From a virus (taxonomy: Duplodnaviria > Heunggongvirae > Uroviricota > Caudoviricetes): a DNA stretch of 64,000 bases. Position numbers and translations under genes: made by a program. Below are positions 888-62,833 of the stretch, piece by piece; the first letter of the stretch is position 1, and each line of letters opens with the position of its first letter. The notes beneath the pieces were generated by a model. That model saw only the letters and a list, made by a program, of their open reading frames with translations, searched no databases and had not been told where the DNA came from. The stretch lies in the IMG/VR virus record IMGVR_UViG_3300021431_000002. One strand, written 5' to 3'.

Positions 888-1077
888 AGTCTCTTTCCTC
901 TGTTTCTTCAACGTTACCGTATGGGTAACTCCTAGAGTTATTATAATATGGGTTATACCTATCAGTTTGGTTTTTTGATAGTTCACCCATAAAATAGCAT
1001 CCCTCTACGCAGCCACCCATTAGGCATAACAAAAGCAATGTTCTGATAATACCTCTAAATAAATCTCTAGCCATCAC
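832..1077 (-). CDS. small putative secreted protein or lipoprotein (81 aa)
   Basis: Hydrophobic N-terminus (IIRTLLLLCLMGGC). The start ATG overlaps the stop of the upstream ligase gene (ATGA), suggesting translational coupling. Confidence 0.35.
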   Translation of the reverse strand: MMARDLFRGIIRTLLLLCLMGGCVEGCYFMGELSKNQTDRYNPYYNNSRSYPYGNVEETEERDYEPINTDTSATTSPRLEY

Positions 1078-1979
1078 TCTACCTTAATGTTTTCGATATT
1101 TTCGTGATACCATGTATTAAACTCTTCAAACTCTTCGTCTGAAAACTCTTTACGCACGGTGTCATACTCAATGTAATCACAGTATTTAACTTTTACAATG
1201 ATTCTCTTACCGCTTCCATTACAGAGTGGAATTACTGGGCGAGCAACAATACCCTCCTCAATCATAGTTGGGTCAGCAGCACCCTCAAACTGAGTTGTAA
1301 AACCACTTCTAACCTTATCTTCGATTTCCTTGAGCGCCATTATACCCAAGAAAGGAACAGTGCCTAGTCCAAGACCCTTACACAATGAGTCTCTTACATC
1401 CTTTGGTGTCCACCAACCTTGCTGTTTGATGTCAAACACACGGAATGCATTACCATTCTGAATGTAACGAGAACCGCACTTCTGAATACCAGTACCAAAA
1501 TACTCTCCGTAGATATAAACTGGAACCTCTTCAAGGGTTACACGATACATATCGGAACATAATGTTTCTGCTTTATTTCCATCGAGCCTATAGTACTCTA
1601 TTTTATTTGTTTCCTTATCTTTTACTGGAGTAAATCTAGCACTCTCTTTGGGGAACATTGCGCAAAGTTGTGGCTTGATACGCTCACCAATTTCTTGCAG
1701 CATTTCGAACTGTCCATGCATAGAGCTTGATTTCTCGTTTTTACCTTCAACGCGAATCTCTTGGGTAGATGGGAAAAACGCAATCTTAGAGTTCGTGCCA
1801 TCAATCTTGCTATATGCCTCCCAAGGACAATTGAAAAGGTAACTAGCCTCAATGTTTGAGAACTCGCCCAAGATTATCTTATTTTTGAATTTAAGCCACT
1901 TCTTGTTTGGGCATTTGCTACCATCAAAAATGTACCTTTTGTACATTGTATCAATTTTTTGATAAACTTCTAGACTCAT
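1074..1979 (-). CDS. ATP-dependent RNA ligase (Rnl-like nucleotidyltransferase)
   Basis: Covalent nucleotidyltransferase motifs: KIDGTN (motif I, KxDG), EGIVARP (motif IV), KVKYCD (motif V). Size 301 aa. Confidence 0.7.
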   Translation of the reverse strand: MSLEVYQKIDTMYKRYIFDGSKCPNKKWLKFKNKIILGEFSNIEASYLFNCPWEAYSKIDGTNSKIAFFPSTQEIRVEGKNEKSSSMHGQFEMLQEIGERIKPQLCAMFPKESARFTPVKDKETNKIEYYRLDGNKAETLCSDMYRVTLEEVPVYIYGEYFGTGIQKCGSRYIQNGNAFRVFDIKQQGWWTPKDVRDSLCKGLGLGTVPFLGIMALKEIEDKVRSGFTTQFEGAADPTMIEEGIVARPVIPLCNGSGKRIIVKVKYCDYIEYDTVRKEFSDEEFEEFNTWYHENIENIKVE

Positions 1980-1998
1980 AAATTTTATTTCTAACTAA

Positions 1999-2202
1999 TT
2001 ATTCTGTTTCTCCTCTCCACAAATTATTTTCCATTTTGTCGGAATGGGAAAATTCTATAATTTCGTCAATGTTATCACATTTAATTTTTTTCAGCACATC
2101 CAATTCAATTTCTCCATTATTGATGTCCTCAACAAGAGACAGCAATGTTCTATATGGGGTTAATAAATTTCTAAGATGTGCCCCTAAAGTTTCTGTTGCC
2201 AT
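1999..2202 (-). CDS. small hypothetical protein. The start is probably internal, because the N-terminal extension of ORF 1999..2253 is the reverse complement of a tRNA
   Basis: The ORF overlaps the tRNA at 2218..2302. Confidence 0.25.
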   Translation of the reverse strand: MATETLGAHLRNLLTPYRTLLSLVEDINNGEIELDVLKKIKCDNIDEIIEFSHSDKMENNLWRGETE

Positions 2203-2217
2203 TTTTTTATTAATTAG

Positions 2218-2302
2218 TAGGACAATGTGGACTCGAACCACAGACCTCCCCATACTAGTGTTTCCACGTTCTGGTGTACTCTACCAACTGAGCTATCGTC
2301 CT
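2218..2302 (-). tRNA. tRNA of about 85 nt with an extended variable region. Anticodon not resolved by hand
   Basis: Acceptor AGGACGA/TTGTCCT, D-arm GCTCAGTTGGTAGAGT, T-arm TGTGG-TTCGAGT-CCACA. Confidence 0.5.
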
Positions 2303-2562
2303 TAATGCAATCTTCATGCGGCTAGCGTTTCCTTCTTCCGCACTCATCTAAGTAATTGCTTGATAACTGACTGTTTTACAATCTCGGTCAAACTAACTCC
2401 ATTGCAAGCATCAATCTGTTCCGAAGTCGAGACTGTTATATCTTAGCAATGTCGTGTGGCAGGACTGCCCTCACCACGTCTTTCAGTTACCGTTTTGAAG
2501 CTTCATGGTGCAAATGTACGAAATTAAATTGATATATCCAAATTTTTTTATCTTAAAAAACG

Positions 2563-3267
2563 TTAATTTTTATAGATTTTTATTGTTACTCCTGCACAAT
2601 ATACCAACAATAACCCTAACATTGTTATCAATACAGAACATCCCCACATATAGTATATAAGGCAGAACATTAAAACAAGCCCAACTACAGTAGAACCTAT
2701 TCCGAATAGGAATTGATAATACAATAACGAGTGCTTTATTGGATAAGATTTCTTACTCAAGTAATCTTCAGCATAGAAGCTTAAAAAATTAGTTATACTA
2801 CTTCTATAATTTAATTTTTCCCATTTTTTAACATCATAATTGTTTATATAAATCATTCTGCAAAGTATTTTAAGCCTTTTTATCAAATCAGAATCATTTC
2901 TCATATTATACAATGTGATGCCTTTCAAATAAATAGGAGAGTCGTCTCTTAGCGCACTTCTTTTTTGTCCTGGAGGAACGTCTTTTATCGAATATCTCAT
3001 GCGGAATAGACCAAAAACTTTTTTGTTTTTTAACGCCCTACAAAAATCTTGCACTAGTTGGTGATTTTTACTAATCCCACAGAATTCAGAATCAATATCA
3101 GCATATGGGTCTTTTTTTATTTGTTCTTCCACCTTTTTAGCTTTTTTTAGTTTTCTTTTTATTCTAAGTTGTCTTAGTTTCTTGCTTTTTCTCATCCTTT
3201 TTGAAGACTTCTTTAAATGGACTAATAATGTTTTTCCAACTAAAGATTCTGTTAAGGATTCCTTCAT
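2563..3267 (-). CDS. membrane protein with a lysine-rich N-terminal region and two C-terminal transmembrane segments
   Basis: ORF in track. C-terminal hydrophobic stretches. Start uncertain because it overlaps 3164..3427. Confidence 0.4.
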   Translation of the reverse strand: MKESLTESLVGKTLLVHLKKSSKRMRKSKKLRQLRIKRKLKKAKKVEEQIKKDPYADIDSEFCGISKNHQLVQDFCRALKNKKVFGLFRMRYSIKDVPPGQKRSALRDDSPIYLKGITLYNMRNDSDLIKRLKILCRMIYINNYDVKKWEKLNYRSSITNFLSFYAEDYLSKKSYPIKHSLLYYQFLFGIGSTVVGLVLMFCLIYYMWGCSVLITMLGLLLVYCAGVTIKIYKN

Positions 3268-3427
3268 CTTCTAAATCCATAACAAGACTTTCCAAAATGC
3301 TTAATTTCTCTTTATATATTGCTGTTTCCTTTGAAACATCAACTAGAGTTTGTTCCAATGACTTAACTTTGCTTTTCAAGTCATTATACTCTTTCATTGG
3401 TATCTCTATCCTTGCCATATTACCCAA
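3164..3427 (-). CDS. small coiled-coil protein (87 aa)
   Basis: ORF in track with heptad-like charged composition. Confidence 0.35.
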   Translation of the reverse strand: MGNMARIEIPMKEYNDLKSKVKSLEQTLVDVSKETAIYKEKLSILESLVMDLEDEGILNRIFSWKNIISPFKEVFKKDEKKQETKTT

Positions 3428-3995
3428 TATTGACTCTTTCTGAATTATTGATAAAGTTTATAACTTTTTCCTCCCCATCTTTTGTTATTGCTGGGCAAAA
3501 ATCAATAAGAACGTGGAAATTAACATTTGGAAATGCCCTTAAACCATCTTTCAATGAATCAAAAAGACACACGTCTAAAGCAATGCCAGCCAAATCAATA
3601 TCAGTTACTTTCATCATTTCACAAATATTACTAAGTAATGCATTAGACTTTTCATTCTTAAACACTGAATATTCCTCGTGGTCTTCATCGACCCCTTTAG
3701 TCAAGACAATATAGTCACTATTAATAGCGTTCAAAGCATCAATAATTGGCTGATAGATTGCTGCATCATGCGTATGTTGTACGCAATGTTCAGGCCATAC
3801 CCCACCGTTTGCCTTGAATGAACAATGTGTATGCGGATGCCAATCTGCTGTTAGAAATATCTTATCATATGCTGGACCGTTTTCACGTATAAATTCAGCA
3901 AGACGATTCATTTTATGGGTTGCACCTTCCACTGGAAGATTACCGCCCTCTAGAAAACCATATTGACAATCTATTAAAATCAAAATTTTATTCAT
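3420..3995 (-). CDS. pncA: nicotinamidase/pyrazinamidase (isochorismatase family)
   Basis: Motifs DCQYGF, ADWHPHTHCSF, EHCVQHTHDAAI, and the catalytic Cys region VTDIDLAGIALDVC. Confidence 0.7.
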   Translation of the reverse strand: MNKILILIDCQYGFLEGGNLPVEGATHKMNRLAEFIRENGPAYDKIFLTADWHPHTHCSFKANGGVWPEHCVQHTHDAAIYQPIIDALNAINSDYIVLTKGVDEDHEEYSVFKNEKSNALLSNICEMMKVTDIDLAGIALDVCLFDSLKDGLRAFPNVNFHVLIDFCPAITKDGEEKVINFINNSERVNIG

Positions 3996-4007
3996 AATTT
4001 ATTCTGT

Positions 4008-4502
4008 TTAATTATTATTATTTTCACATGCGACAGCAGCAGTGGTAAGATTTCCAACAATTTCTGCTATAGCATCATTTTTAATCTCTGCTTCTTTCTC
4101 AGCCTCTTTTGGTTTTTTGACCTCTCTTGACTTTGATGTTTTTTTGGTCTCTTTTGGTTTTTTGACCTCTCTTGACTTTGGTGCTTTTTTAACTTTAATT
4201 GTTTTTGATGTAGTCTTTTTTTGCGTTTCTTGAGTGTTTACAACATCATCAGTAGGCATTTCCACTGTTTCATTTAATGCCTCTGTATCAATAGTTTTTT
4301 CTTCATTATTGATGGTTGTTTTCTTTTCATTTGCTAACTCCTCAAGTTCTTTCATGAATTTCTCTTTTTCTTGTTTCACCTTATACTCAGTAATATCATA
4401 TGTAACACAAGAATTATGATATTTTTTCGCAAATAGGGTCATACAAGAATCAGTTTCTGTCTTAAGACCCTTGCAAGGACAGTTTTTACATAGTGTACCC
4501 AT
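4008..4502 (-). CDS. Cys-rich (CxxC) protein with a C-terminal basic KKPKE/SREVKKPK tandem repeat. Possible DNA-binding protein
   Basis: N-terminal CKNCPCKG...C...C. The C-terminal repeat is encoded by a DNA direct repeat at 4090-4200. Confidence 0.4.
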   Translation of the reverse strand: MGTLCKNCPCKGLKTETDSCMTLFAKKYHNSCVTYDITEYKVKQEKEKFMKELEELANEKKTTINNEEKTIDTEALNETVEMPTDDVVNTQETQKKTTSKTIKVKKAPKSREVKKPKETKKTSKSREVKKPKEAEKEAEIKNDAIAEIVGNLTTAAVACENNNN

Positions 4503-4624
4503 AGTTTTTCTTTTTTATGCAAATATACTAAAAATAATTTAAATATAAAAATATTATATTATATATTATATTTTATTAATATTATTTAATATATTATATT
4601 ATTATAATTAAAGAACCTAATGGG

Positions 4625-6031
4625 TCATACCGTTAGGCTCTTTAATTTATTTTCAACAATCTCAAATGCTTCATCTTTAGTCATATTAGGATTTTCAAAA
4701 TATGCTTCTTTAACAGCCTCTAAAAGTATTCCAATATTTGGTCCACTTTTTAAATGAAATTCCTTCAAAATATCGTCTCCAGAGATAGGAAGTTTAACAT
4801 TTGCTGCTTTTTCAGCATCTTCCATTTCCTCTATTCTATTGAGAATATCAAGAACTTGCCGTTTTTTCTTACCAAAGGTGCAATAAAGATTATTGGCGTT
4901 CATTAGGTCAGCAGTTGCCCCCAAATCATCACCAGTTAAGTTGATAAATTTTCTAATCTTCTTATCTGGCGGTAATACGCCATCGGCATAACTTGCAAAA
5001 CCTCTATGATGCTTAATGGCTGTTTCAACAGATTTGATGATATAATTAGGGTATTTCATGTCCTTCAAGTCGCTTGCAGCAATTTCTGCACTAAACTTAT
5101 CTGGCATCACATCCCTACGTTTCTCTGTTATAATTCTACCAACATCATGGAACAAAGCAGCCAATCTATTTTCAAGATATGGTTGAACAGTATCTAGCAC
5201 ATTCATTGTATGGTCAAATGTGCTAACCATAGGATTCCTTGACTCATAGGCGTAGGTTGTATCATAAATGTCTGGCATCACTCTATGCAAAATGCCACAG
5301 AAATACATTTTCCGAATACCGATACTTGGTTTTTCACAAAGTAGAATCTTGGATATTTCCTCACTGATTCTTTCTTGTGAAATGATTTGAATACGGTGCG
5401 CATTTTTAACCATCCCTAACCAAGTGTTTTTTTCAATATCCCAACCGAATCTAGTTGAAAAACGAATTACACGTAGGATTCTCAATGGGTCATCATTGAA
5501 CGTAACATCTGGGTCAGTTGGAGTCTTTATTACTTGATTTACTAAGTCATCTATAGAGCCGTTAAAATCATGTATTTTCTCTGTGCTGATGTTATAATAC
5601 AGAGAATTGATGGTAAGGTCACGCCTTTTTGCATCCTCTTCAAGACTTCCGAATACAGTTTCTGGGTTTCTGCTTTCCTTGTGGTACTGTTCCTTTCTAG
5701 TTTGGACACATTCAATCTCTATATCTTTGAATTCATCGTTCTTGAACAATTGGAACTTCGCAGTTCCATAGTTTTCAAACACTACTGGATTAGTATTCTG
5801 AATAAAACACTGGTGTTTTATTGCCATATATACAGCAAACAGCATTCCACCGTTTTTCATTTCAACAACGATGTCAATGTCTTTAATGGGTAATCCTAAC
5901 AATGCATCACGCACACAACCGCCAACTAAATATACTTTCCCTTCAAAATGGGTGTTTTTGATTGACGCTTGTATGAGGTCAACTAAGTGTTTGATTCTAT
6001 CATCAACTTTTTTAAATAATAGTTCGTTCAT
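4625..6031 (-). CDS. cca: CCA-adding enzyme / tRNA nucleotidyltransferase (PolyA_pol head domain plus HD domain)
   Basis: GGCVRDALLGLPIKDIDIVV head-domain signature. FHDVGR HD motif downstream. Confidence 0.75.
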   Translation of the reverse strand: MNELLFKKVDDRIKHLVDLIQASIKNTHFEGKVYLVGGCVRDALLGLPIKDIDIVVEMKNGGMLFAVYMAIKHQCFIQNTNPVVFENYGTAKFQLFKNDEFKDIEIECVQTRKEQYHKESRNPETVFGSLEEDAKRRDLTINSLYYNISTEKIHDFNGSIDDLVNQVIKTPTDPDVTFNDDPLRILRVIRFSTRFGWDIEKNTWLGMVKNAHRIQIISQERISEEISKILLCEKPSIGIRKMYFCGILHRVMPDIYDTTYAYESRNPMVSTFDHTMNVLDTVQPYLENRLAALFHDVGRIITEKRRDVMPDKFSAEIAASDLKDMKYPNYIIKSVETAIKHHRGFASYADGVLPPDKKIRKFINLTGDDLGATADLMNANNLYCTFGKKKRQVLDILNRIEEMEDAEKAANVKLPISGDDILKEFHLKSGPNIGILLEAVKEAYFENPNMTKDEAFEIVENKLKSLTV

Positions 6032-6032
6032 T

Positions 6033-6989
6033 TTATTTTATTAATTCTAACGGATACATAAATTTAGCCAATTCGTGGTCATAGTAGAAAACTAAGTCAG
6101 AATCGTTTATTTCCATCCCATTGAGTAGTTTATACACTTGTGGGTAATAAGTGTCAGGAACGCAATGTAAAGTGTGTTTCCTGCCATTTAAATAATCTTC
6201 TTTAATATATGCCGTGACAATTCTGTCAGAAACTCCACGTTTGAAGTCTTGAGACATAAGTTTAAATTTATTAACTCTAAATCGGAATCCCATAAACTCT
6301 TCGTTAGTAACAGCAAGTTTTTTAAATTCCTCTTCTGTACCCAAGAACTTGAGAATAATTTCATCAGTCTTGATAGAGTAGAGTTTCATTTTATCATCAA
6401 ATCTTTCGGCAAGTTTCTTTGCAAACTTATTAGATATTAATTTCTCAATGGCAGATGTCCTTTTACCGTTAAGTTTACCAAACAGCATTTGTCTAAGTTG
6501 TTTTGCGTGTTTGAAATACTCTATGTCAGTGAATTTCTCGATAAACTCTTCATAGGTATCACAATCCTTTACAATTGCTGGGTCTGCATAATTTAATGCT
6601 TGGAAGTTTGCCTTAATCATGTCATAAGACACAAAAAAACAATTACACTGTTCCTTCGTATAAAGCTCTGGAGAACCTACAATTGGTGTCTCTGAAGCTA
6701 TCTCACTCTTAGCACCATTAAATGCCTTGTAAGCCTCGGAGTTGAGTATATAGGCTAATATTTGGTCTTCTATATTATGCCGATACTCAAGGAATTTCTG
6801 CATATTACCGTCAAATTTATCCCTAACAGTTTCTAACAAGGTGAGATATTTTGTTTTTGCCCCACAATCATCCTCAAGTAGTGTTATATGCTCGTCAAAA
6901 TAAGGCGATTGAACTACTTGGATAGGCAAATTGAAATCTTTAACAAATTTACTTCTAAATTGTTTGAGTAACAGTGTATTTTCAGTCAT
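6033..6989 (-). CDS. hypothetical protein (318 aa)
   Basis: ORF in track. Stop codon overlaps the start of the cca gene. Confidence 0.5.
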   Translation of the reverse strand: MTENTLLLKQFRSKFVKDFNLPIQVVQSPYFDEHITLLEDDCGAKTKYLTLLETVRDKFDGNMQKFLEYRHNIEDQILAYILNSEAYKAFNGAKSEIASETPIVGSPELYTKEQCNCFFVSYDMIKANFQALNYADPAIVKDCDTYEEFIEKFTDIEYFKHAKQLRQMLFGKLNGKRTSAIEKLISNKFAKKLAERFDDKMKLYSIKTDEIILKFLGTEEEFKKLAVTNEEFMGFRFRVNKFKLMSQDFKRGVSDRIVTAYIKEDYLNGRKHTLHCVPDTYYPQVYKLLNGMEINDSDLVFYYDHELAKFMYPLELIK

Positions 6990-7070
6990 AATCAGTTTAC
7001 ATTTTACGTTAATGCAAATATATGAAAAAAACGTGAGACTGCAAAATTATCTCACGTTTTTTAATTTTTT

Positions 7071-7835
7071 TTAACCATTATTGATTGAGCATTCAAAAAT
7101 GGTAACTAAATCATTTGGTTTGAGACCTTCCACGAATCTAGAATAGAATTCATTTATCCATTCTTTTTCATCCCCAGAGGAATCTACGTCAACCCATCCA
7201 TTTTCATCTGCATAGGCATAGTTCCAATATGAAGTGCTATAGGTGACATAATCCTCTTTTGACTTGAAATTACTGAAATAGGCTTCTTTATCCTTCATTG
7301 ATTCGTAAATGGTCTTCTCTTGGTCGTTTTGCGGCTCTCTACCATCTACCACAAGTTCCCAAGCTGCTTCATATACCTCTTTGTTAGCACCATTCATTGC
7401 ATCCCAATCAATATCTTTAGCCAATGCACTATATGATTCACTGCCATCTTTTAGTTTAAGAGGAATGCAGAAATTTCTTCCAATCCTACAAGTATTATAT
7501 TTGACGTATGGGTTTTCGTCTGATAATGCATCACCATTTTCATCATAGTACATACCATCGGTAAGTTCTCTGTAGTATTCAAATGGAGATAGTTTTTTGA
7601 TGGTGTCTAGCCTATCTTCCACAGCCTCTTTGGTTATTGGTAAATCTATTTTGTCAATATTTGCTAATATGGTATCAAGTGTTTTAATTGCGGTATCTTG
7701 ATATTTTTTAGCGTTTAGGTATTTGTATTTTACATATGGTTCTGTTTTGTATTCAGAACCATATTTTTCCACTATGCTTTTAGGGTTTTCACCGACAACC
7801 ATCAACGAATAAAATTTACTATTGGTTTGTGCCAT
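7071..7835 (-). CDS. hypothetical protein (254 aa)
   Basis: ORF in track. Confidence 0.5.
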   Translation of the reverse strand: MAQTNSKFYSLMVVGENPKSIVEKYGSEYKTEPYVKYKYLNAKKYQDTAIKTLDTILANIDKIDLPITKEAVEDRLDTIKKLSPFEYYRELTDGMYYDENGDALSDENPYVKYNTCRIGRNFCIPLKLKDGSESYSALAKDIDWDAMNGANKEVYEAAWELVVDGREPQNDQEKTIYESMKDKEAYFSNFKSKEDYVTYSTSYWNYAYADENGWVDVDSSGDEKEWINEFYSRFVEGLKPNDLVTIFECSINNG

Positions 7836-9255
7836 TTTCTCCTCCTACATCTATTGTTAATGCTTCTCTAGGAACTCCAGTTATTGCGTTAAGGTCTCCT
7901 CGCAATCTTTCATAGGTCGCTTCAACAGTTGCTATATTATCTTCAGCTATAGCATAACGTCCAGGTTGTTCCCAATAATGTACCACACTAGGACCAAAAT
8001 ATGGTACTCCATTCATTTCATCAGCATTACCGCCAATCTCTTGCGCTGTTTCAATATTTGGATTTGCCATTTCAAAATCTTCCTCCACTTCTCTTTCTTC
8101 ATTATCTTCAGCAGGACCATCTTCATCAGTTTCTTCATCAGCATTGCCAAAAATAGCATCATTAGTAAAAGCATCCCTAAAATTCCCTATTGTTGATGAA
8201 ACGGTATAATAACTTTTTTTATCTATCGAAAATTCATTTTCTTTAAGCTGTTTAGAAAAGTCGATGTTAAAGTAGTCTGCTGCTGCGTTATTAAAGTTGA
8301 AAAACTGAAACGAGCACAATGACTGAAATAAAATGTCGTTAATTACGGATTGATTGGATTCATCAAACCTACTATAAGTCCAGATATAAGGTTTGCTTTT
8401 ACTTTCAATCATTCTATTATATATTTTATCCATTACCACTCTTTCATCGTTAAGGTCATTTAAAAGAGTCTTATCTTTTGTGACCCAAGGGCTTTTCTTG
8501 AAAGCGTTTGTTCCTGGATATGCGAATGATGGCGAACTAGGCGTAATAATACAAGATATTTTATATTCGGAAAGTATTTCATTTATCCCATCTTCATCAA
8601 ATCTCATACGTTCATTTACCCAAAACATTTTTTTACCTATTCTTTTTTCTTGCTCAGATTTCCAAAGCCTATCCAATGAAACTTGACCACCGATACATAA
8701 ACAGTTGAATTTGTTTAGTTTAACCACAGAATAATCTTGAATAGTTTTCACATTACTAAGATTAAGTAATTCATCCGTAAAATATTTGGGGTCATCATTA
8801 CCTCTCACAAATAGGATATGCGTGTTATTATCGGCTAACACATCATTTAGCATATTAAATTTGTCATAATAATATTTCAAATCGTTTTGACCAAATGTAT
8901 TTGAGCCATTGACAATTAACACTGCGTTATCTAAAGAATAGCCACAATATTTTGGATGTTTGCTCATTTTGTTTACACACCTTCTAATGGTATTGCCATG
9001 TTGGTCACGAGGTTGTGGAATACCGCCACCTATGCCAAATGGGTTGTGTATACCACCAAATAATGATTGGGTCTCTTCTTCTTGTTTTCTTCTAATCCTT
9101 TCTTGTCTTTCTATTTCTTTTGGGTGCTGCTCAACTTTATATTTACTTATGTTGGTTAGACTTCCAACAATCATTTTAACAAAACGGTCAACGTTCCCAT
9201 TAATGCTTCCGCATATTAAACAAGTCTTGATTTTACCATAATCATAAATTTTCAT
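7819..9255 (-). CDS. putative calcineurin-like metallophosphoesterase
   Basis: GSINGNVDRF (GDxxDRG-like) and ILFVRGNDD (GNHD/E-like) motifs. Adjacent to cca and the ligase. Confidence 0.35.
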   Translation of the reverse strand: MKIYDYGKIKTCLICGSINGNVDRFVKMIVGSLTNISKYKVEQHPKEIERQERIRRKQEEETQSLFGGIHNPFGIGGGIPQPRDQHGNTIRRCVNKMSKHPKYCGYSLDNAVLIVNGSNTFGQNDLKYYYDKFNMLNDVLADNNTHILFVRGNDDPKYFTDELLNLSNVKTIQDYSVVKLNKFNCLCIGGQVSLDRLWKSEQEKRIGKKMFWVNERMRFDEDGINEILSEYKISCIITPSSPSFAYPGTNAFKKSPWVTKDKTLLNDLNDERVVMDKIYNRMIESKSKPYIWTYSRFDESNQSVINDILFQSLCSFQFFNFNNAAADYFNIDFSKQLKENEFSIDKKSYYTVSSTIGNFRDAFTNDAIFGNADEETDEDGPAEDNEEREVEEDFEMANPNIETAQEIGGNADEMNGVPYFGPSVVHYWEQPGRYAIAEDNIATVEATYERLRGDLNAITGVPREALTIDVGGENGTNQ

Positions 9256-9399: not shown

Positions 9400-11505
9400 T
9401 TATGCTTTTGTAAGCTCTAATTCTAATTCCTCTTCTTCTGCTAAAGCACCTACTTTCTCAGTAGTATACTTTCCGAATATTGAGTCAGTTGGCTTTATGT
9501 ATTCGTCCAAGTTAATACCGAATTCTTTTGCCAAACTTTTATCCTCTTTTCTTATTTTCAAATCTGGTCGTTGTCCAAGAACTTTAAGTGCCTCAAGGTT
9601 GTTGTTTCTGATACAATTACCAACTGCTGTGCAATCAAAATCGTTAACAACGTTTACATCAACGTTTTTATTGGAAACTAGCTCTTTTACAATCCATACC
9701 TCATTTGTGTACTCACAAGCAGTATTAAGAGCGCAATCGTTATTGATGTCTTTTGCTGCAAGATTAAAGTTTTTACTAGAAAGGATTGACTTAATCATAT
9801 TAGTCAATATCTTGTTATCCTCTTCTGAACTTGCAACCTCATCACTTCCATGCAAATAGATTAATGACTGAAGCAAAGTTTCGCCAAAACCATCCTCAAT
9901 TTGTGAGTTGAATCCATCACAATTAACAATAGTGTCAAAAAGTTTGAACATTTTGTTAGTTATTGCTGAGAAAACAGGGATTCTCTGGTTAAATTCGTAG
10001 TTAACATTAATATTACCACGTTCTTTCTCAATCAACTTGATAGCCCCAATCTCATCGTTCTCATCAATGAGTTTGTGAAGAAGGATTGATGGGTCAATTG
10101 CCTCACGATTTAGATACTTATCCGTAGAAATACCAATTTTTGATAAATATCCTTCTTTTGAAATTTCAGCACCAAAAATGTCATACATCACAGACAAAGA
10201 CAATGTGCCATACATATCCTTGCGATATTGCATTGCAATAAGTGACCTTTCATTGTTTATTGGGAGGTTAAAATCCATAAACAAATAGGTTTTGTTGTTA
10301 TTGTCAATGGAGTTGAAATTGTTGGTTTTGATGAAAGTCTTTTTAACAAAATCATTGAACACTCTAGAGTTAAGGACATTTATAATCAAACGTCCATCAC
10401 CCTCATATGCAATAGCAAATGATTCTGGAGATTTTTTGACCATTGCTATCATATCGGTAATGTTCCAAGAGAATCCTAGTTCTTTAGGCAAACGCATGAA
10501 AGTGCTCATTTTAATGCCGAAATTATCGAACACATTATAAATACTTAGATTTTCGTTGCCTTGTCTATAAGGATTAATCATTGAATAGTTATGGCAAGTT
10601 TGTGCTTCAACAATGCCAGTTCCACCCTCAACAGTAAAACCAATGTGTGCAAATGCATCACTTTCTTTTCTGCTAAAGTCGAACAAGAAATACTGACTAC
10701 GATTCGCCTTACTTGTTACATAACTCTTGAAATACGACTCTTCACGAGCGATACACCAACCAGTACGTCCATTACCGCATAGTTTATGACTAGATTGGAA
10801 CGATGGAACATAAACAACTACACAAGGACCTTCGTTGAAAACCACTTCGCAGTCTTTTGCATTGTGTTCTATATAAGCAAGAAGGTCTTCTTTACCCTCT
10901 TTCCAATCATAAGTTCTATTGAGGCAATCTAGAATTGCTTGATGGAGTGATGCAGCGTTTTTAAGAGCAGAACTACTGCTGTAGAACTTGTTCTTAATAT
11001 TCATAGGTTTTTTATTGAACGTCTTGAAAACATCATACCATTTCTTAATGTTTGCATTCTCATACGCCTCAATTGGAGTGTATTCCTTACCCAAAATAGA
11101 TTCAGTCAGAATCTTTTTCTGCTCTGTATTGAAATGAGAGATAATATTCTTAACAAAAGCAATACGCTCAAGACCCTTAATCTCTTTAAGTAATTGGGCA
11201 ACTCCACTTTTATTAGAGTATGATACAACATTCTTCTTTTCGAGCTTGTTAATCATGTTACTGTTGGTAGTAATCCAAGTGTGAATGGTTTCCAACTCTT
11301 CAAAGGTCATTGACTGAGAGAATATCATTCTAACAGCCCAAATCTGGTAGTTTGACTGACCATCGAACATTTCACATACTTTAATAAATAATTTGTTAGT
11401 CTCTGGATTGATGCCATACTTATCAATCAAAGGCTGCATCTGTTTTTTATTATAAGTCATGTTTAATAAAAGAATTAAATTTGTTTTTTCCGTTTGTTTG
11501 TGCAA
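9400..11505 (-). CDS. large hypothetical protein (701 aa). Paralog of 11823..14282 with an ankyrin-like C-terminus
   Basis: Shared core with 11823..14282: DKYGxNP, WCI, YFLFDFS...IGFT. C-terminal repeats resemble ankyrin (GNCIRNNNLEALKVL). Confidence 0.6.
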   Translation of the reverse strand: MHKQTEKTNLILLLNMTYNKKQMQPLIDKYGINPETNKLFIKVCEMFDGQSNYQIWAVRMIFSQSMTFEELETIHTWITTNSNMINKLEKKNVVSYSNKSGVAQLLKEIKGLERIAFVKNIISHFNTEQKKILTESILGKEYTPIEAYENANIKKWYDVFKTFNKKPMNIKNKFYSSSSALKNAASLHQAILDCLNRTYDWKEGKEDLLAYIEHNAKDCEVVFNEGPCVVVYVPSFQSSHKLCGNGRTGWCIAREESYFKSYVTSKANRSQYFLFDFSRKESDAFAHIGFTVEGGTGIVEAQTCHNYSMINPYRQGNENLSIYNVFDNFGIKMSTFMRLPKELGFSWNITDMIAMVKKSPESFAIAYEGDGRLIINVLNSRVFNDFVKKTFIKTNNFNSIDNNNKTYLFMDFNLPINNERSLIAMQYRKDMYGTLSLSVMYDIFGAEISKEGYLSKIGISTDKYLNREAIDPSILLHKLIDENDEIGAIKLIEKERGNINVNYEFNQRIPVFSAITNKMFKLFDTIVNCDGFNSQIEDGFGETLLQSLIYLHGSDEVASSEEDNKILTNMIKSILSSKNFNLAAKDINNDCALNTACEYTNEVWIVKELVSNKNVDVNVVNDFDCTAVGNCIRNNNLEALKVLGQRPDLKIRKEDKSLAKEFGINLDEYIKPTDSIFGKYTTEKVGALAEEEELELELTKA

Positions 11506-11822: not shown

Positions 11823-14282
11823 TTAACGGAATGTTACCGTATAGGTTGGCATAGTTACAAATGCGCTAGAAATGAAATCTTCATGCTCTTTCTTTGACTT
11901 TAAAGCACTTTCATAGACTGGTTTAATCCATTCATACTTATCAGCAAGTTTTTTAATTGCTTCTTGCATTTCTTCATCACCATATCTAACGAAATAGTTA
12001 ACGATATATGACGGTGAATCCTTTTTACTAGACATATTCAAATTATTAAGCATCATAAACATGAACTCTTTTATAAGGCCTCCACTAAGGCCTGAGTTGA
12101 AAATGTTACTCAATAATTTTACATAGGCGATATTGAAATCCATTTTGTTACTGTTGTTTTCACTACCCAAGATACGTTTTATCAAAAGATAATAGCCGAC
12201 ATAGATGACATCTTCACGATTAGGTATCTTTTCGTCATAGAACAGATGTATTCTCTCTTCACTAGGTTTTTCAAGAATCCCATTCCTATACAACTGTCTA
12301 GCAGCACTTTTCAGATAGTTAAACAAGTTCTTCAGTAATTCAGCAATATGTGAGGAATCCATATACTCTACAAGATAATGACCGTTGTCATATATCAAAT
12401 CTAGATAATCGAAAGACAAATAATCTACAAGTGACGAATTGATGTAGGAATAGTTATTTCCGATGTCAAAATATTCATGCATTGCCCTGTGCAAGCAATT
12501 TTTATCAACCTTTATGCATTCCTTTAACATCTTAGTATTAAACGATGTATAAGCATTCCTTACTTTTTTGTCAATGTCATCAGTCCTTCTGATAATATCG
12601 TAAGGTACACCAAACTCAATCAGCTTGCCATCGAAACTAGCGCGTGTCTGGGTAGATGACTCATTGAATACGTTGCTTGGGTAATCTTCCCCACAACCAC
12701 CGTCGTATATTATGGAAAACAGCAATTTATTTGAATCATATTGGCTGATAGAAAAATCGGCAAATATGATGTGCTGTAACTCATAATCATCTGACGAAAT
12801 ATTATCCATATAGGCATCACCTAACAAATATTTGATGTTCTCATCACGGACAGAGAGTACTAGTTTATCTCCATCGTGTTTGATTATGTCAACATTGTTT
12901 TTATCAACGCATTCGTAAAGGTACGACATGAAATGGTCATAATCCCACTGATATTGAGGTCTGTCATAATGTGCAACAAGTGTTATGTCAATACCACAAT
13001 TTTGTAGCACACTATATATGCTATTCCTACCGTTAAATCTAGCCAAATATGATTTGAGCATAATTGCGTTAGGATTGTTACCAGCATCCATTAGATTGTC
13101 GTTAATGAAATTATGCGCTGATGTAATGCCTTTGTTGTGCGTGGTTGTAAATCCAATAATGGATAGTTTATCATCCTCTAACTTTGAGAAATCAAATATC
13201 ATATACTGGGTAGATTTACCATGAGTGTTACCGACATATTGATTCCAATATGTTTTGTTTTTAGAAATACACCAGTTAGTAGTCTTACCCAACTGTTTTA
13301 TCGTGTCGTAGTCATCAACTTTAACCAAGACTACATAATCGTTTTCAAATATTACCTTGTAATTAATTCCCTCTACATTATTGATGAAATCCATAAAGGA
13401 ATCTTTGTTCCAGTCAAAATGAACACTTGTCACATGCCTCATCTGACGCATAAGTTCATTGAAATCATCAATCGTGGATACTTTCTTAATGAAATTTATC
13501 TTTTTTATCTCTGAAAGTTTAGAGAATCTTGCAAGGGTTTTTTTATCGGTGTCAGATAATTCGTTGTTTCTCAACAATTTTTTCTGAGCCGTGTTAAATT
13601 CGTTAATCGCATCACCAACTCTCTTCTCATTCCTTAATACTGACAGCTCTTCCATAAGGTCGTTTATATTACTCTGTGTGGTATACGCAGTTATTGTGCC
13701 CTTAGAAAGTTTCTTAGTCAATTGTTTATAGTATTCATTCCATAATAAGATATTATGTATGGTTCTCATAGAGCAATGCGCCTTGAAGTATACATCAACA
13801 GCCCACTGGAAAAAATTCTTAGAGCCATCGGTATATATGTACAATCTCTTGCATTGTATATCATTTGGGTTTAAACCATACTTATCTGAGAGGCTTTTAA
13901 TCATTTTTGCATTTTCTTTCAAAAATGCTTGATAATCCTTATCAAATGATTTTGGCAATAGAGTGATTTCAGTCAAAACATTAGCATAATCGCCAAACCC
14001 ATTTGATGTTTTACTAACCTCTAGTAACCTAGGATGGTTAATGCATTGTAAATCATTCGCAATCTCTTTCGAAAGACTAGCCAAAGCTGAAGTTCCGAAG
14101 TTGTGATTATTAAACCAATTATTGAAAATGAACATTTTTTCACCAATCTGTGAATTTGGGTTTGTCTTTAAAACCTCACAAATGTCAAAACCATGTTCTC
14201 CAGCCCTAACTAAAATCTTTCTAAGAGAGTAATCAGACACCCTAAACAAGTGTCTGATTCCTCTTATATTAGTACCTATCAT
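11823..14282 (-). CDS. large hypothetical protein (819 aa). Paralog of 9400..11505
   Basis: Shared motifs: LSDKYGLNP, TTNWCISKNKTYW, YMIFDFSKLEDDKLSIIGFTTTHNKGITSAHN. Confidence 0.6.
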   Translation of the reverse strand: MIGTNIRGIRHLFRVSDYSLRKILVRAGEHGFDICEVLKTNPNSQIGEKMFIFNNWFNNHNFGTSALASLSKEIANDLQCINHPRLLEVSKTSNGFGDYANVLTEITLLPKSFDKDYQAFLKENAKMIKSLSDKYGLNPNDIQCKRLYIYTDGSKNFFQWAVDVYFKAHCSMRTIHNILLWNEYYKQLTKKLSKGTITAYTTQSNINDLMEELSVLRNEKRVGDAINEFNTAQKKLLRNNELSDTDKKTLARFSKLSEIKKINFIKKVSTIDDFNELMRQMRHVTSVHFDWNKDSFMDFINNVEGINYKVIFENDYVVLVKVDDYDTIKQLGKTTNWCISKNKTYWNQYVGNTHGKSTQYMIFDFSKLEDDKLSIIGFTTTHNKGITSAHNFINDNLMDAGNNPNAIMLKSYLARFNGRNSIYSVLQNCGIDITLVAHYDRPQYQWDYDHFMSYLYECVDKNNVDIIKHDGDKLVLSVRDENIKYLLGDAYMDNISSDDYELQHIIFADFSISQYDSNKLLFSIIYDGGCGEDYPSNVFNESSTQTRASFDGKLIEFGVPYDIIRRTDDIDKKVRNAYTSFNTKMLKECIKVDKNCLHRAMHEYFDIGNNYSYINSSLVDYLSFDYLDLIYDNGHYLVEYMDSSHIAELLKNLFNYLKSAARQLYRNGILEKPSEERIHLFYDEKIPNREDVIYVGYYLLIKRILGSENNSNKMDFNIAYVKLLSNIFNSGLSGGLIKEFMFMMLNNLNMSSKKDSPSYIVNYFVRYGDEEMQEAIKKLADKYEWIKPVYESALKSKKEHEDFISSAFVTMPTYTVTFR

Positions 14283-16928: not shown

Positions 16929-17526
16929 ATATAATATTATTTTGGTTATAAATGTTTTTATAAATTCTATCACTAAAAATATTGTATTTTTTTACTATTG
17001 ATTCCCTAATATAATATTTTAATTTAATTCCGTGTGCTTCACAAATTTCTTTTTTTCTTAAGTCTCTTTCTATTTCGTTTTCTAAAGAACTTGTAAAAAA
17101 ACTAGATTCAATAAAATGCTGTATTCCTTGACACTCGATAGCCACATTTTCTTTATCCAAATAAAAATCCACACTTTGATTACCAAGAATACCGCCAATA
17201 TTACTATACCTTTCATTAGAAATACCCATTCCGTTTAGAATCAATAGTATTTCATTTTCTAACGTACTATTTTTACAATCTGGACACCCTTGACCTCTTA
17301 AATGTGCTGAAGGTATCTGCCAAAATTCGCCATGCTCTGGACATATTATGCACACTTTTGTCTCATTATTTATATATTCTACTTTAGAATAGTCATACTT
17401 ATCACCATGAACTTTTTTAGCATCATTAATAAAGGCATCTAATTTTTTTTTCAATTTATTTGCTGCATTTTTTCTACCGCAAATTGGACATCCTTGACCT
17501 TGAAGATGATTTATAGGCTGCTGCAT
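16921..17526 (-). CDS. putative HEF-like homing endonuclease (duplicated zinc ribbon plus a PD-(D/E)xK-like C-terminus)
   Basis: Duplicated HLQGQGCPICG / HLRGQGCPDCK motifs. VDFYLDKENVAIECQGIQH. The 3' end overlaps the DHFR start. Confidence 0.4.
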   Translation of the reverse strand: MQQPINHLQGQGCPICGRKNAANKLKKKLDAFINDAKKVHGDKYDYSKVEYINNETKVCIICPEHGEFWQIPSAHLRGQGCPDCKNSTLENEILLILNGMGISNERYSNIGGILGNQSVDFYLDKENVAIECQGIQHFIESSFFTSSLENEIERDLRKKEICEAHGIKLKYYIRESIVKKYNIFSDRIYKNIYNQNNIIYA

Positions 17527-17660
17527 AAATTCTCCATGTATAGGGCATCCTATTTTAACTTTAGTATGATTAGTTACATATTCTACTTTAGAATATAAAT
17601 TAAGTAATTTGATGCAAATGTATAAAAAAAAAATGAGAGTTCAAATAGTGAACCCCCATT

Positions 17661-17993
17661 TTAATATACTTTAACATCTAAAATCGTGCGCCATAACATT
17701 TCGCTAAAAAGTTTGTTTACAACTTTTTCATATTTATAATTTTCCAAATCTTCTAGCATTGGATATTGTTTTTTCAATGCTGTCGGTTTTTCATTAATTG
17801 GATATGCAATTTTGATTTTTATTGGTTTCAAATTATCCTCCGTATAATTATTTCCATATGGATTTATATCATATGAATAATACGCAGTAACCTCTTCAAC
17901 ATCGTAATGATTCATTGCAATAAGGTTTTCGCATTTCCAATCTTCTAATTCAATTTCGATTTTCATCTTTCCAGTAGCAATATAAACAGCCAT
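17661..17993 (-). CDS. hypothetical protein (110 aa)
   Basis: ORF in track. Confidence 0.4.
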   Translation of the reverse strand: MAVYIATGKMKIEIELEDWKCENLIAMNHYDVEEVTAYYSYDINPYGNNYTEDNLKPIKIKIAYPINEKPTALKKQYPMLEDLENYKYEKVVNKLFSEMLWRTILDVKVY

Positions 17994-20757: not shown

Positions 20758-21363
20758 TTAAACGTCCTCGTCTTCATCCCACAAACGCAACTGAAGAGAA
20801 ATCTCTTCAATGCGAGTCTTGTGGTTGAAAGCCCACTCGTAGTTGTCAATGTCCTTAATCTTGACCCACTTAATCTCGCCTACCTCTGCACCCTCATTCT
20901 TCTCTTTTGAGAACTTGAAGTCAGTGGTGATATGGTTTTCAATCTTAGCACCAAAACGGAAAGTCACATTCTGCCTATTAGCAGTAACTGGGTCATCCTC
21001 ATAACCAATGAATATCAAACTTTCAATAGGAAGTTTAACACCTGTTTCCTCAAAGCACTCACGAACCGCACATTCCTTTGTGGTCTCGTCAAAGTCAAGA
21101 TAGCCACAAGGACAATTCCACATGCCTCTGAAATCAGCAGCTTCTTCACCACGTTCAGATGCTAGAACACACCAATCACCATCAGCATCTTTACAGAATA
21201 CAAAAATGGCTGTTGCCATAGAACGGCTAAACCAACCAATAAATGCTTGGCTTAATACTACTCCAATATCTCCTTCTGAAATGCCCAAACTACTTAAATT
21301 GGCTGCAAGCAATTTTATTGCTTTTTCCATGTCTAGACAAGGACGATTTGTCATTTTCTCCAT
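20758..21363 (-). CDS. Nudix hydrolase
   Basis: Nudix box GYLDFDETTKECAVRECFEETGV (Gx5Ex7REUxEExGU). Confidence 0.75.
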   Translation of the reverse strand: MEKMTNRPCLDMEKAIKLLAANLSSLGISEGDIGVVLSQAFIGWFSRSMATAIFVFCKDADGDWCVLASERGEEAADFRGMWNCPCGYLDFDETTKECAVRECFEETGVKLPIESLIFIGYEDDPVTANRQNVTFRFGAKIENHITTDFKFSKEKNEGAEVGEIKWVKIKDIDNYEWAFNHKTRIEEISLQLRLWDEDEDV

Positions 21364-23793: not shown

Positions 23794-23878
23794 TGTAGCG
23801 AGGGTTGGTTTCGAACCAACGATGAGCCGAAGCTCCCTTCCTTATGAGAGAAGTGCGATAGACCACTCTGCCACCTCG
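23794..23878 (-). tRNA. class-II (long variable arm) tRNA with a CAU anticodon loop CTCATAA. Identity unclear
   Basis: Acceptor GGCGAGG/CCTCGCT plus A73. D-arm GCAGAGTGGTCTATCGC. Anticodon arm CTTCT-CTCATAA-GGAAG. Variable hairpin GGAGCTTCGGCTC. T-arm GTTGG-TTCGAAA-CCAAC. Confidence 0.5.
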
Positions 23879-23952
23879 CCATTAACTAGCTGCGTCACTA
23901 GAATAAATCCGTTCACTATGTTTAAGGTTGTGTACACATACCTACAGCTACT

Positions 23953-27034: not shown

Positions 27035-27083
27035 AATTATAAATATTCGAATACGTACAAAAATAATTAGTATCTGAAATTAG

Positions 27084-27167
27084 AACACCACATGGGATTC
27101 GAACCCATAAGACCTTTCGATACCTCTTTAGGAGAGAGGGACGCTTCCAATTACGTGCTAGTGGTGC
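27084..27167 (-). tRNA. tRNA-Arg(CCU) with an extended variable arm
   Basis: Acceptor GCACCAC/GTGGTGT. Anticodon arm CCTCT-CTCCTAA-AGAGG. Variable TATCGAAAGGTCTT. T-arm ATGGG-TTCGAAT-CCCAT. Confidence 0.55.
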
Positions 27168-30435: not shown

Positions 30436-30451
30436 AACGTTTTCTTTTAGA

Positions 30452-37129: not shown

Positions 37130-37429
37130 TCAGTCTTCGGTTACTGTTTTCAAATTTTTAAATAGCTCTTCGTGTCCGAAAACCGCCAAGGCTGTTGTTT
37201 TATAGTTTAAATCTGGTTCTTTAAACTCGGTATAGTCAATGCCATACCCTTCAAGCCTTCTTTTCCACTTATCTACGTCAGCATATAGATAAATCAAATA
37301 ATCGTTACTCCATTCAAGGCTATTGGGATGCTCAATCATCCATTGAGCCACTGCATGACCTCCTTGAACACAACCATATACTGGTTTTAACGCTCTATCT
37401 ACGAGTATGTATAACTTCTTTTTAATCAT
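37130..37429 (-). CDS. possible PTH2-like peptidyl-tRNA hydrolase
   Basis: KLYILVDRALKPVYGCVQGGHAVAQW resembles the PTH2 GKGKIAAQCxHA core. Start trimmed to MIKKK. Confidence 0.3.
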   Translation of the reverse strand: MIKKKLYILVDRALKPVYGCVQGGHAVAQWMIEHPNSLEWSNDYLIYLYADVDKWKRRLEGYGIDYTEFKEPDLNYKTTALAVFGHEELFKNLKTVTED

Positions 37430-37733
37430 TGTCTTCTGCGGATGCAAATTTGTTATACTCCTCGATAACGTAATTTTTAAAAAGTGGAATTGCATAATTC
37501 TCAGTCATATCACCACCACTACCAACTATTCTACCATTGTAGAGACCTTTATGGCAACGAGTCTTAACCTCTTCATCAAGGTACTTATCACGTTCCTCAC
37601 CTTCAATACGATGCTTAAAAATGTAATATGCTACGTAAGTCCAATGAGAATGCTCTCTACTTTTGATATACTCCTTAAATTTAAGATACTGTTCTTTAGT
37701 GGTTGCGTTGTTTGTAAAAATTTTTGTATTCAT
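37422..37733 (-). CDS. hypothetical protein (103 aa)
   Basis: ORF in track. Confidence 0.4.
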   Translation of the reverse strand: MNTKIFTNNATTKEQYLKFKEYIKSREHSHWTYVAYYIFKHRIEGEERDKYLDEEVKTRCHKGLYNGRIVGSGGDMTENYAIPLFKNYVIEEYNKFASAEDND

Positions 37734-45781: not shown

Positions 45782-46429
45782 TTATTTATCTTCTACATAC
45801 ACACCACAATATTGAGGTTTGCCCAATTCAACCCATTCATCGTGAGTCATAATGTGATATGTCTTGTGTTTCGACTGTTTTTTATCACCTACCGATTTAA
45901 TGTCTCTTGTTTTAGAATCAACGGATTTGATAATATCTGGTATTCTATAATTACCAACCATTTGCTTTATTAACGATGCATAATTATTAGTGAAATACCA
46001 CTCAGAGCATGTTATCCATAAAGGTGTCTTTGAGTTACCACGTAAAATTTCAACACAATCTGGTATCTCACAATGGTATGGGTTTTTAGCAATCCCAACA
46101 ATTGATATATCTGGTCTGTTGTATTTTTCCATTAAAGCATTTGCCAAACGCATACCAATTCCAGGTGTTTTATCTTTTCCGTTTTCAGATAGCCAAACAA
46201 ATCCATCAACGATAATTGTGTCAACATCATCTAGGTCTATCATTTTTAAACACTGCATAATACATGGTAGTTCACGTTTATATAATTCTCCTGGTTTGTA
46301 CTCTGCGTCAATTGTTTCTCTTTTACTTGTAATGAAATATTTTACTTTTGTGTCTGCCCAACTTTCAAACACCCCACCAACGGTATACGAATACCCATCG
46401 TAATAATATGTATCAAACGCAATAATCAT
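45782..46429 (-). CDS. endonuclease V (Nfi)-like protein
   Basis: DTIIVDGFVW...PGIGMRLANAL...ISIVGIAKNP follows the EndoV LVDGxG...G.A.H.GV....P.IGVAK pattern. Confidence 0.45.
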   Translation of the reverse strand: MIIAFDTYYYDGYSYTVGGVFESWADTKVKYFITSKRETIDAEYKPGELYKRELPCIMQCLKMIDLDDVDTIIVDGFVWLSENGKDKTPGIGMRLANALMEKYNRPDISIVGIAKNPYHCEIPDCVEILRGNSKTPLWITCSEWYFTNNYASLIKQMVGNYRIPDIIKSVDSKTRDIKSVGDKKQSKHKTYHIMTHDEWVELGKPQYCGVYVEDK

Positions 46430-52353: not shown

Positions 52354-52359
52354 TTTTTG

Positions 52360-54484: not shown

Positions 54485-54503
54485 ATTTGGAAATTTGATT
54501 TTG

Positions 54504-62395: not shown

Positions 62396-62833
62396 TCATT
62401 TAAATTTTCCTAATCTTATACCTTCAACAAGGTAGTTATACAATATTTCCCAATCTGTTTCGGCTTCAAATCCGAACTTATCATCTATCCCTACATTGAA
62501 ATATGTTTTCTCATCGAAGCAAGACAGCGATGTGTTTTCTGTTTCAGTGTTTCGGTTAATATAATCAAACCTAATACCATTAGTTTTAAAATATTCAACA
62601 TAATCATTTATAACATTTTTATACGTTGATGTCCATAGTATGAGAGAAATCTGCTGGGCATGACTCATAATTTCCAATGCTTCTTTCGCAAAAGGATACC
62701 ACTTATACTCTTCTTTCTCGTGATAGCAAGCCTCAAATACAGTGTCGTGAATATCAACAAGCACATATATTTTCTCCCAATTACGGTCTTTCATTCGTTT
62801 GAATGCGCCATCGAAACTTTTTTCTATATTCAT
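62396..62833 (-). CDS. possible HAD-like phosphatase
   Basis: VLVDIHDTVF resembles the DxDxT motif I. Confidence 0.25.
   Translation of the reverse strand: MNIEKSFDGAFKRMKDRNWEKIYVLVDIHDTVFEACYHEKEEYKWYPFAKEALEIMSHAQQISLILWTSTYKNVINDYVEYFKTNGIRFDYINRNTETENTSLSCFDEKTYFNVGIDDKFGFEAETDWEILYNYLVEGIRLGKFK

Follow-up and report, generated by a model that had tools for sequence, protein, structure and literature searches.

The window analysed here, a 64,000 nucleotide stretch of a Caudoviricetes genome (IMG/VR record IMGVR_UViG_3300021431_000002), carries between 1074 and 9255 the genes for an ATP-dependent RNA ligase, a CCA-adding enzyme and a protein with a calcineurin-like fold, while PTH2-like, endonuclease V (EndoV)-like and HAD-like genes sit further along, in or next to a large tRNA array. 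These six open reading frames (ORFs), which a sequence-only reading of the same DNA had placed exactly (at 1074, 4625, 7819, 37130, 45782 and 62396), were proposed to form a tRNA repair module, directed at host anticodon nucleases or tRNA 3'-end damage and analogous to T4 Pnkp/Rnl1. This proposal is partly supported, that is, the genes make up a tRNA-maintenance set of a known kind, but a T4-like repair pathway built on this particular phosphoesterase fails.

The setting is that of a large phage. The window has a GC content of ~34% with a constantly negative GC skew, and default ARAGORN finds 31 tRNAs and one tmRNA between 23.8 and 64 kb, while Rfam raises the number of tRNA matches to 35, one of them at 2218-2302; taken together, the phage has roughly 38 tRNA genes. 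A 407,876 bp metagenomic contig encodes a protein with the same sequence as the ligase (100% identity), and a search of GenBank phages found no near-identical DNA. Since homologs of five of the proteins (ligase, CCA enzyme, phosphoesterase-like, PTH2-like and EndoV-like) occur in Prevotella Lak megaphages (29-50% identity), the source is treated here as a probable Lak-related megaphage, with a genome of ~408 kb.

The RNA ligase and the CCA-adding enzyme

The ligase (1074..1979, minus strand; 301 aa) matches PF09414 (RNA_ligase, E=6e-15) and the PHROG RNA-ligase families, and no DNA-ligase, capping or Rnl1 model of Pfam; no Rnl1-type model, whether PF09511 or its NCBIfam counterpart, matches it at E<=0.1. 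When 12 diverse homologs were aligned, including those of Lak, crAss-like, Streptomyces and podovirus phages, the nucleotidyltransferase motifs were found to be conserved, namely motif I (K58-x-D60-G61-x-N63, which contains the KxDG that had been noticed from the letters alone), III (E159), IV (D183) and V (E242-G243 followed by K263-x-K265). A search of PDB with the single sequence returned nothing useful. With a profile of the family the best match is T4 Rnl2 (1s68/2hvq, E=4e-11 to 1e-10), followed by Pab1020 (Rnl3) at 2e-5 and by chains named 'DNA ligase' at 3e-5 or worse. The claim of an ATP-dependent RNA ligase is therefore borne out, and the protein profiles neither as a DNA ligase nor as a capping enzyme, while the comparison with Rnl1 falls, since this is an Rnl2-type domain.

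It is, however, only part of an Rnl2. Like T4 Rnl2 (gp24.1; PDB 2HVQ, 1S68) it has every nucleotidyltransferase motif, including the lysine nucleophile, but unlike T4 Rnl2 it lacks the ~90-aa C-terminal domain: the profile alignment spans the N-terminal nucleotidyltransferase domain alone, stopping at Rnl2 residue ~237, and only ~35 residues follow motif V. The N-domain of Rnl5 is absent as well, and the Rnl2 equivalog TIGR02307 gives 15.7 bits, far under its cut-off of 197. What the clade has instead is an N-terminal segment of its own (Y-x-K-I-x-T-x-[YF]-K-R) and an insert of ~45 aa. The isolated N-domain of T4 Rnl2 self-adenylylates and seals pre-adenylylated nicks, but performs overall nick sealing poorly, so that the phage enzyme, which has no C-domain, must recognise its substrate through the N-terminal segment and insert of its clade or with the help of a partner protein. 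Such an enzyme would seal breaks with 3'-OH and 5'-phosphate ends in structured RNA, which could be broken tRNAs or the exons of insert-bearing phage tRNAs.

The second gene (4625..6031, minus strand) encodes a class II tRNA nucleotidyltransferase of 468 aa, in which the head (PF01743, E=2e-25, 90 bits), the RNA-binding neck (PF12627, E=2e-15, 56 bits) and the HD domain (PF01966, 25 bits against a cut-off of 22) are all above their Pfam cut-offs, as had been anticipated for head and HD domain. The sequence shows the motifs GGxVRD, DxD, RRD and H...HD, and the protein matches phrog_2244 (tRNA nucleotidyltransferase, E=3e-64) and NF008137 ('multifunctional CCA addition/repair protein', E=1e-31). 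TIGR02692, a CCA model, is the best of the models (E=7e-64), with 216 bits against an equivalog cut-off of 438.8, and PcnB and A-adding models score lower. The phage protein thus has the complete domain set of the E. coli-type multifunctional class II enzymes, from which it differs by being divergent (its best identities among phages are 34-36%), by falling under the equivalog cut-offs and by being encoded by a phage nearly all of whose tRNA genes lack CCA. Indeed, an encoded CCA follows only one of the 34 Rfam-supported tRNA genes (His, 60631-60703), and because the other 33 are without it the main job of the enzyme would be to finish the 3' ends of the phage tRNAs, with the rebuilding of damaged CCA ends as a plausible second role. 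In 30 of the 34 genes the discriminator is followed by C and then a base other than C (CAA being the commonest sequence), which may be a shared 3'-processing signal.

The genes outside the 1074-9255 region are present as claimed, with assignments of uneven quality. The HAD-fold family is supported for the protein encoded at 62396..62833 (minus strand; 145 aa), which is of the BT0820 type (NF046079, E=2e-10, below cut-off; PDB 2OBB, E=1.4e-6), and its nucleophile motif is degenerate: VDIHDT aligns with VDFDGT of BT0820, placing a His at the catalytic Asp+2 position, so that the pattern D-x-D-x-(T/V) is lost. The possible PTH2-like hydrolase (37130..37495, minus strand; 121 aa) matches phrog_3668 ('hydrolase', E=2.8e-7) and nothing in Pfam, NCBIfam or the PDB sequences. 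The remote EndoV-like protein (45782..46429, minus strand; 215 aa) reaches PF04493 with E=6.4e-4 (19.9 bits, where the cut-off is 23.4, within an alignment of just 42 residues), and among PDB sequences it matches B. subtilis EndoV (3GA2) best, at a weak E=0.44, the resemblance, which includes an aligned Y-x-G-x-L-x-x-R-E-L-P and a DG, having been judged by eye. Lak phages are the closest relatives of both proteins in the phage collection searched, accounting for 15 of 18 records in the case of the PTH2-like protein (47-50% identity among the matches listed) and for all 15 in that of the EndoV-like protein. The two tRNAs with A34 anticodons that had been linked to EndoV, Arg-ACG and Leu-AAG, are confirmed.

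A degenerate metallophosphoesterase and the search for healing enzymes

The third gene of the proposed module (7819..9255, minus strand) encodes a 478-aa protein for which Pfam, NCBIfam and PHROG have no match, and for which PDB searches with the single sequence and with a profile of its clade gave nothing useful, after which its fold was assigned by structure prediction. In the AlphaFold2 model a core of approximately residues 1-345 is predicted with high confidence (predicted local distance difference test mostly 80-95, save for a disordered loop at 73-100), whereas the acidic C-terminal third is disordered, this long tail being specific to the clade. Foldseek places the model next to Dbr1, PolD DP1, LpxH, Mre11, GpdQ, Rv0805 and PptH in PDB (probability 0.9-1.0 to Dbr1, LpxH, Mre11, GpdQ and Rv0805), with the RNA phosphodiesterase Dbr1 as the best match. 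A beta-alpha-beta-alpha-beta calcineurin-like fold is thereby confirmed for the modelled protein, in agreement with the sequence-only reading, and it is as a metallophosphoesterase (MPE)-like protein that we refer to it.

The same cannot be said of the activity. An exhaustive profile search returned 1502 cluster representatives, and 211 homologs were collected, on contigs of up to 416 kb, of which 21 were aligned. Members at 28-32% identity to the window protein have canonical motifs, GD(I/V)HG (I), GDxGFG (II), RGNHDDP (III) and SH(T/S)xP (V), whereas in the clade of the window protein these read G-S-I-N-G-N, N-G-S-N-T-F-G, R-G-N-(gap)-D-D-P and T-P-S-S-P-S-F; motif IV has a G-G and no His in either group (C-I-G-G in the window clade). 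The Asp and His ligands are therefore gone at every motif (I, II, III and V) at which distant relatives keep one, and the distant members with canonical motifs pass PF00149 with 30-41 bits, above the cut-off, while the window protein goes unmatched. Away from the active site many residues are invariant among the aligned proteins (HPKEIERQ, W198, D195, E271-R272 and W292), which suggests that the protein was retained with a different function, and it is best read as a conserved pseudoenzyme, predicted to be inactive. The Foldseek matches include precedents for this, among them GAP50 (3TGH) and a DNA polymerase B-subunit (5VBN), in which the fold is likewise kept and the ligands replaced. The phage protein differs from them in that its closest relatives are apparently active phage MPEs and in its clade-specific acidic tail. 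Foldseek does not separate Mre11 from Dbr1, LpxH or GpdQ, so an Mre11/SbcD-type DNA nuclease, the profile that the sequence-only reading had named as fatal to itself, is not distinguished by structure, a question made moot by the missing ligands.

The loss of these ligands would remove the end-healing step of the proposed pathway, the MPE-like protein being more probably a non-catalytic derivative with no part in the healing of RNA ends. Of the two, the HD domain of the CCA enzyme may be the more credible 2',3'-cyclic phosphodiesterase/phosphatase, judging from E. coli Cca. Other parts of such a pathway were sought with Pfam, and no polynucleotide kinase, 2H, RtcB or Tpt1 domain was found in any remaining ORF of the window, where the sole Walker A motif (among 90 ORFs) belongs to an AAA_25/KaiC-like protein. 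Since the window offers no 5'-kinase, a pathway of the T4 Pnkp/Rnl1 kind is incomplete there, and complete healing and sealing of 2',3'-cyclic-phosphate/5'-OH ends appears not to be encoded in this stretch. What the phage shares with T4 is an ATP-dependent RNA ligase of its own and a heavy investment in tRNAs; what it lacks in the window is an Rnl1-family ligase, a kinase domain and a canonical DxDxT phosphatase, the one phosphoesterase candidate being predicted inactive.

In two related contigs, L007 and L008, the first ligase is followed, 7-10 kb downstream, by a second and smaller PF09414 ligase (228 aa) and by a true Metallophos protein (17268-17954 and 20220-20903 in L007; 16606-17292 and 20567-20900 in L008). 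A second ligase or a kinase in the equivalent place, just past the window, was looked for with Pfam and rejected: of the 8.9 kb flank the last ~6.6 kb was covered, and its called ORFs include no second ligase and no polynucleotide kinase, 2H or RtcB domain. The Metallophos protein of the relatives was not seen in the equivalent stretch either.

Gene order, insert-bearing tRNA genes and neighbours

That the three genes form a co-oriented block is correct as far as their strand goes, but says nothing about function, because the minus strand carries every one of the 90 ORFs kept from the 64 kb, and seven other genes lie among the three. Read in the direction of transcription, the order is the MPE-like gene (9255-7819), a gene for a 254-aa protein, one for a 318-aa polymerase-like protein, the CCA gene (6031-4625), a gene for a 164-aa low-complexity protein, a nicotinamidase gene (3995-3420), two small ORFs, a tRNA gene (2302-2217) and the ligase gene (1979-1074). 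This order is kept only in relatives whose ligases are 74-100% identical, genomes that are probably syntenic throughout. In Lak phages the toolkit extends over ~160 kb, with the ligase 68-150 kb from the CCA and MPE-like genes; in Lak-A1, for instance, the homologs are found at 245.8 kb (ligase), 289.3 (PTH2-like), 335.7 (EndoV-like), 397.1 (CCA) and 406.9 (MPE-like), so that only the last two remain within ~10 kb of each other. Since the homologs are dispersed in Lak phages and the order survives only among close relatives, this is a shared toolkit and not a conserved operon, and the idea of a co-located repair unit is not supported.

An unexpected feature is the presence of tRNA genes with inserts. 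One (2217..2302, minus strand) is directly upstream of the ligase gene and carries 12-14 nt just 5' of the anticodon loop; with 42.9 bits it passes the Rfam gathering score, its anticodon region measures 27 nt where the model has 15, and it would be Thr(AGU) were the insert removed (ARAGORN -i reports Thr(agt), intron (31,14)). It is near-identical in L008, where it also lies directly upstream of the ligase, variants occur in L010 and L011, and on other contigs there are both a similar insert-bearing copy and an insert-free variant. The other (38990-39113, minus strand), also above the Rfam gathering score, has an insert of 51-53 nt (ARAGORN -i gives a 53-nt intron) without which it would be Asn(GUU). 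ARAGORN -i puts both inserts at position 31-32, immediately 5' of the anticodon loop, and the default program misses both genes. The longer insert contains a hairpin whose pairing is preserved by double substitutions in a diverged phage. No more than two distinct sequences of this insert were found; a search for insert-less Asn(GUU) alleles, which would fix the splice sites, found only insert-bearing copies. Weaker insert-bearing candidates lie at 30450-30561, 57297-57413 and 63152-63273. Other ARAGORN -i calls (three further 'intron' tRNAs and two with introns of 352-531 nt) have no Rfam support and were set aside as unreliable.

The array has further peculiarities. Long, type-II-like variable arms closed by GAAA or UUCG loops, unusual for these isoacceptors, are found in tRNAs for Met, Arg (three genes) and Thr that are 82-90 nt in length (23795-23880, 27083-27167, 52359-52442, 54503-54592 and 55500-55581), and a 92-nt tRNA with a long variable arm has a CUA, that is amber-reading, anticodon (36607-36698). 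An alternative genetic code was considered and rejected, with all three stop codons in use and the ORFs intact under table 11; as TAG still ends 8 of the 90 ORFs, recoding, if it occurs, would have to be limited to the rest of the genome. Within the array lie two HNH endonuclease genes (50174-51088 and 52660-53124) and, in L008, DUF723 genes have been inserted adjoining the ligase and CCA genes, all of which points to mobile-element traffic in the region.

The other neighbours are a mixed lot. The 318-aa protein (6033..6989, minus strand), whose stop codon ends 1 nt ahead of the start codon of the CCA gene, matches no family model and is confidently modelled as a stand-alone right-hand polymerase-like protein with palm and fingers, in which the carboxylates D123 and D209-E210 are invariant; homologs occur in Salicola phage SCTP-2, in a metagenomic phage record of 642 kb and in another such record that is a 38 kb fragment. 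That the MPE-like protein might be its B-subunit-like partner was rejected as the main explanation: Lak phages have the MPE-like gene and no detectable homolog of the polymerase-like protein, and in LR756502 the two genes are ~178 kb apart. The 254-aa protein encoded between them (7071..7835, minus strand) has no significant match in Pfam, NCBIfam or PHROG. The PncA-like nicotinamidase (3420..3995, minus strand), an isochorismatase-fold protein (PF00857, E=9e-8; NCBIfam nicotinamidase/pyrazinamidase, E=8e-17), belongs to NAD+ salvage and is not tRNA-related. It has company elsewhere, namely genes for an NMN adenylyltransferase (NMNAT; 42180-42740), HIT and CinA/PncC-like proteins (33867-34735, the CinA-like one being 34235-34735) and a NUDIX protein (20758-21363), with NAPRTase and NADAR just outside the window (12039-14362 of contig L001). 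This dispersed NAD+ salvage and ADP-ribose set is consistent with a role in countering host NAD+ depletion. Upstream of the MPE-like gene two paralogous large proteins that match no known family (9400-11505 and 11823-14282; 701 and 819 aa) have a common WCI...FDFS...IGFT core, the shorter one ending in ankyrin repeats, while tandem 144-aa paralogs (22-456 and 453-887) lie directly downstream of the ligase. A scan of the window for promoters and terminators was uninformative, with counts equal to those in shuffled sequences.

What the gene set may do

Taken together, we read 1074-9255 as a long same-strand run of auxiliary genes for phage translation and NAD+ supply, with no dedicated repair operon, a reading to which we give a probability of about 60%. 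Gene sets of this kind have been described. Jumbo phages pair tRNA arrays with Rnl1, Rnl2 or RtcB ligases, kinases, CCA-adding enzymes and PTH2, and their kit also includes HAD, 2H and occasional calcineurin-like phosphatases, NAD+ salvage enzymes and NADAR (Iyer et al., 2021; PMC7824862, section 3.4.9). For Lak phages, genes for CCA addition and peptidyl-tRNA release are listed together with an RNA ligase that was proposed to serve tRNA repair, and "enigmatic" tRNA introns were reported, of which the inserts described above are reminiscent (Devoto et al., preprint 10.1101/356790). The correspondence is close, since here too there are a large tRNA array, an Rnl2-family ligase, a CCA enzyme, a PTH2-like protein, a stand-alone HAD-fold protein, a calcineurin-like protein, NAD+ salvage and NADAR genes and tRNAs with unexplained introns. 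The differences are that in the window the ligase and CCA enzyme are within ~2.6 kb, that the calcineurin-like member is degenerate and that polynucleotide kinase, 2H, RtcB and RlaP are not seen. As the same kit is already in these two accounts, the idea of the sequence-only reading is the standard one, and the window is a new instance of it in which one key component is inactivated.

Three rival readings were also weighed. If the ligase were part of a tRNA repair pathway like that of T4 Pnkp/Rnl1 or Clostridium Pnkp, the MPE-like protein would strip the 2',3'-cyclic or 3'-phosphates left by host anticodon nucleases, after which the ligase would reseal the tRNA with the CCA enzyme at hand. The three genes all exist, in an order that close relatives conserve, calcineurin-type domains heal RNA ends in some systems (including a few phages, according to PMC7824862), and the best structural match of the MPE-like protein is itself an RNA phosphodiesterase. 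Nevertheless, with the ligands of that protein gone and PF00149 unmatched where relatives pass it, no 5'-kinase in the window, a ligase that is not of the Rnl1 type and Lak homologs lying far apart, this pathway is very improbable. The ligase might, on the other hand, have nothing specific to do with tRNA and act in replication or recombination, where it would seal duplexes nicked at an RNA 3'-OH end (RNA-primed DNA or RNA:DNA hybrids, for example). A preference for nicked duplexes is established for T4 Rnl2-type enzymes. The family is, moreover, widespread across phages of varied hosts and genome sizes, and small homologs adjoin DNA polymerase I in the crAss-like phage cr116_1 and, in a podovirus of 65 kb, genes for an exonuclease and an HNH endonuclease. 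In the window, however, the ligase gene is surrounded not by replication genes but by a tRNA gene, genes of NAD+ salvage and that of the CCA enzyme, and the C-domain that T4 Rnl2 needs for nick sealing is missing, which leaves such a role unlikely.

A role in splicing is, in our view, rather improbable; the ligase would here join the exons of phage tRNAs from which an endonuclease had excised the short inserts. Two tRNA genes above the Rfam gathering score have inserts in the anticodon arm that ARAGORN -i models as introns, the hairpin of the longer one stays paired in a diverged phage, the Thr gene precedes the ligase gene in the window and in L008, and tRNA introns have been reported for Lak phages. 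Against this, no splicing endonuclease was found, the adjacency of tRNA and ligase genes is absent from L006 and L007, the long insert is known in two distinct sequences only, the modelled anticodon stems are weak, and the inserts might never be removed, in which case the products would be tRNA-like RNAs or decoys. In its most general form, that the short structured inserts (14-53 nt), which in tRNA genes of Lak-like megaphages occupy a non-canonical site, are cut out by an unrecognised phage nuclease, which could be the EndoV-like protein or one of the other unassigned ORFs, and that the phage's own Rnl2-type ligase joins the exons, the proposal is a long shot, which if true would mean that tRNAs are spliced in a bacterial cell by a pathway that depends on proteins.

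Several points also weigh against the reading that we prefer, of auxiliary genes for translation and NAD+ supply in which the MPE-like protein is inactive: (i) full CCA addition, as opposed to A-adding, CC-adding or poly(A) activity, is probable for the window enzyme, but its score is below the equivalog cut-off, (ii) although the MPE-like protein has lost its canonical ligands, this is not strict proof that it is devoid of all catalytic activity, (iii) a kinase or another healing enzyme could lie in the remaining ~340 kb of the genome, and (iv) judging from the small homologs beside DNA-metabolism genes, the ligase family is not tied to tRNA arrays.

A practical lesson concerns the MPE-like protein, which automated annotation or a first-pass reading would label an enzyme; a repair model built on that label would be wrong. 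If the conservative reading is true, this is another jumbo phage that brings its own tRNA supply chain together with NAD+ salvage, which is useful for annotation and unsurprising. The near-absence of encoded CCA gives the phage CCA enzyme a clear and testable role in tRNA maturation, and insert-bearing tRNA genes beside an RNA ligase offer a concrete way to probe the unexplained "tRNA introns" of Lak phages.

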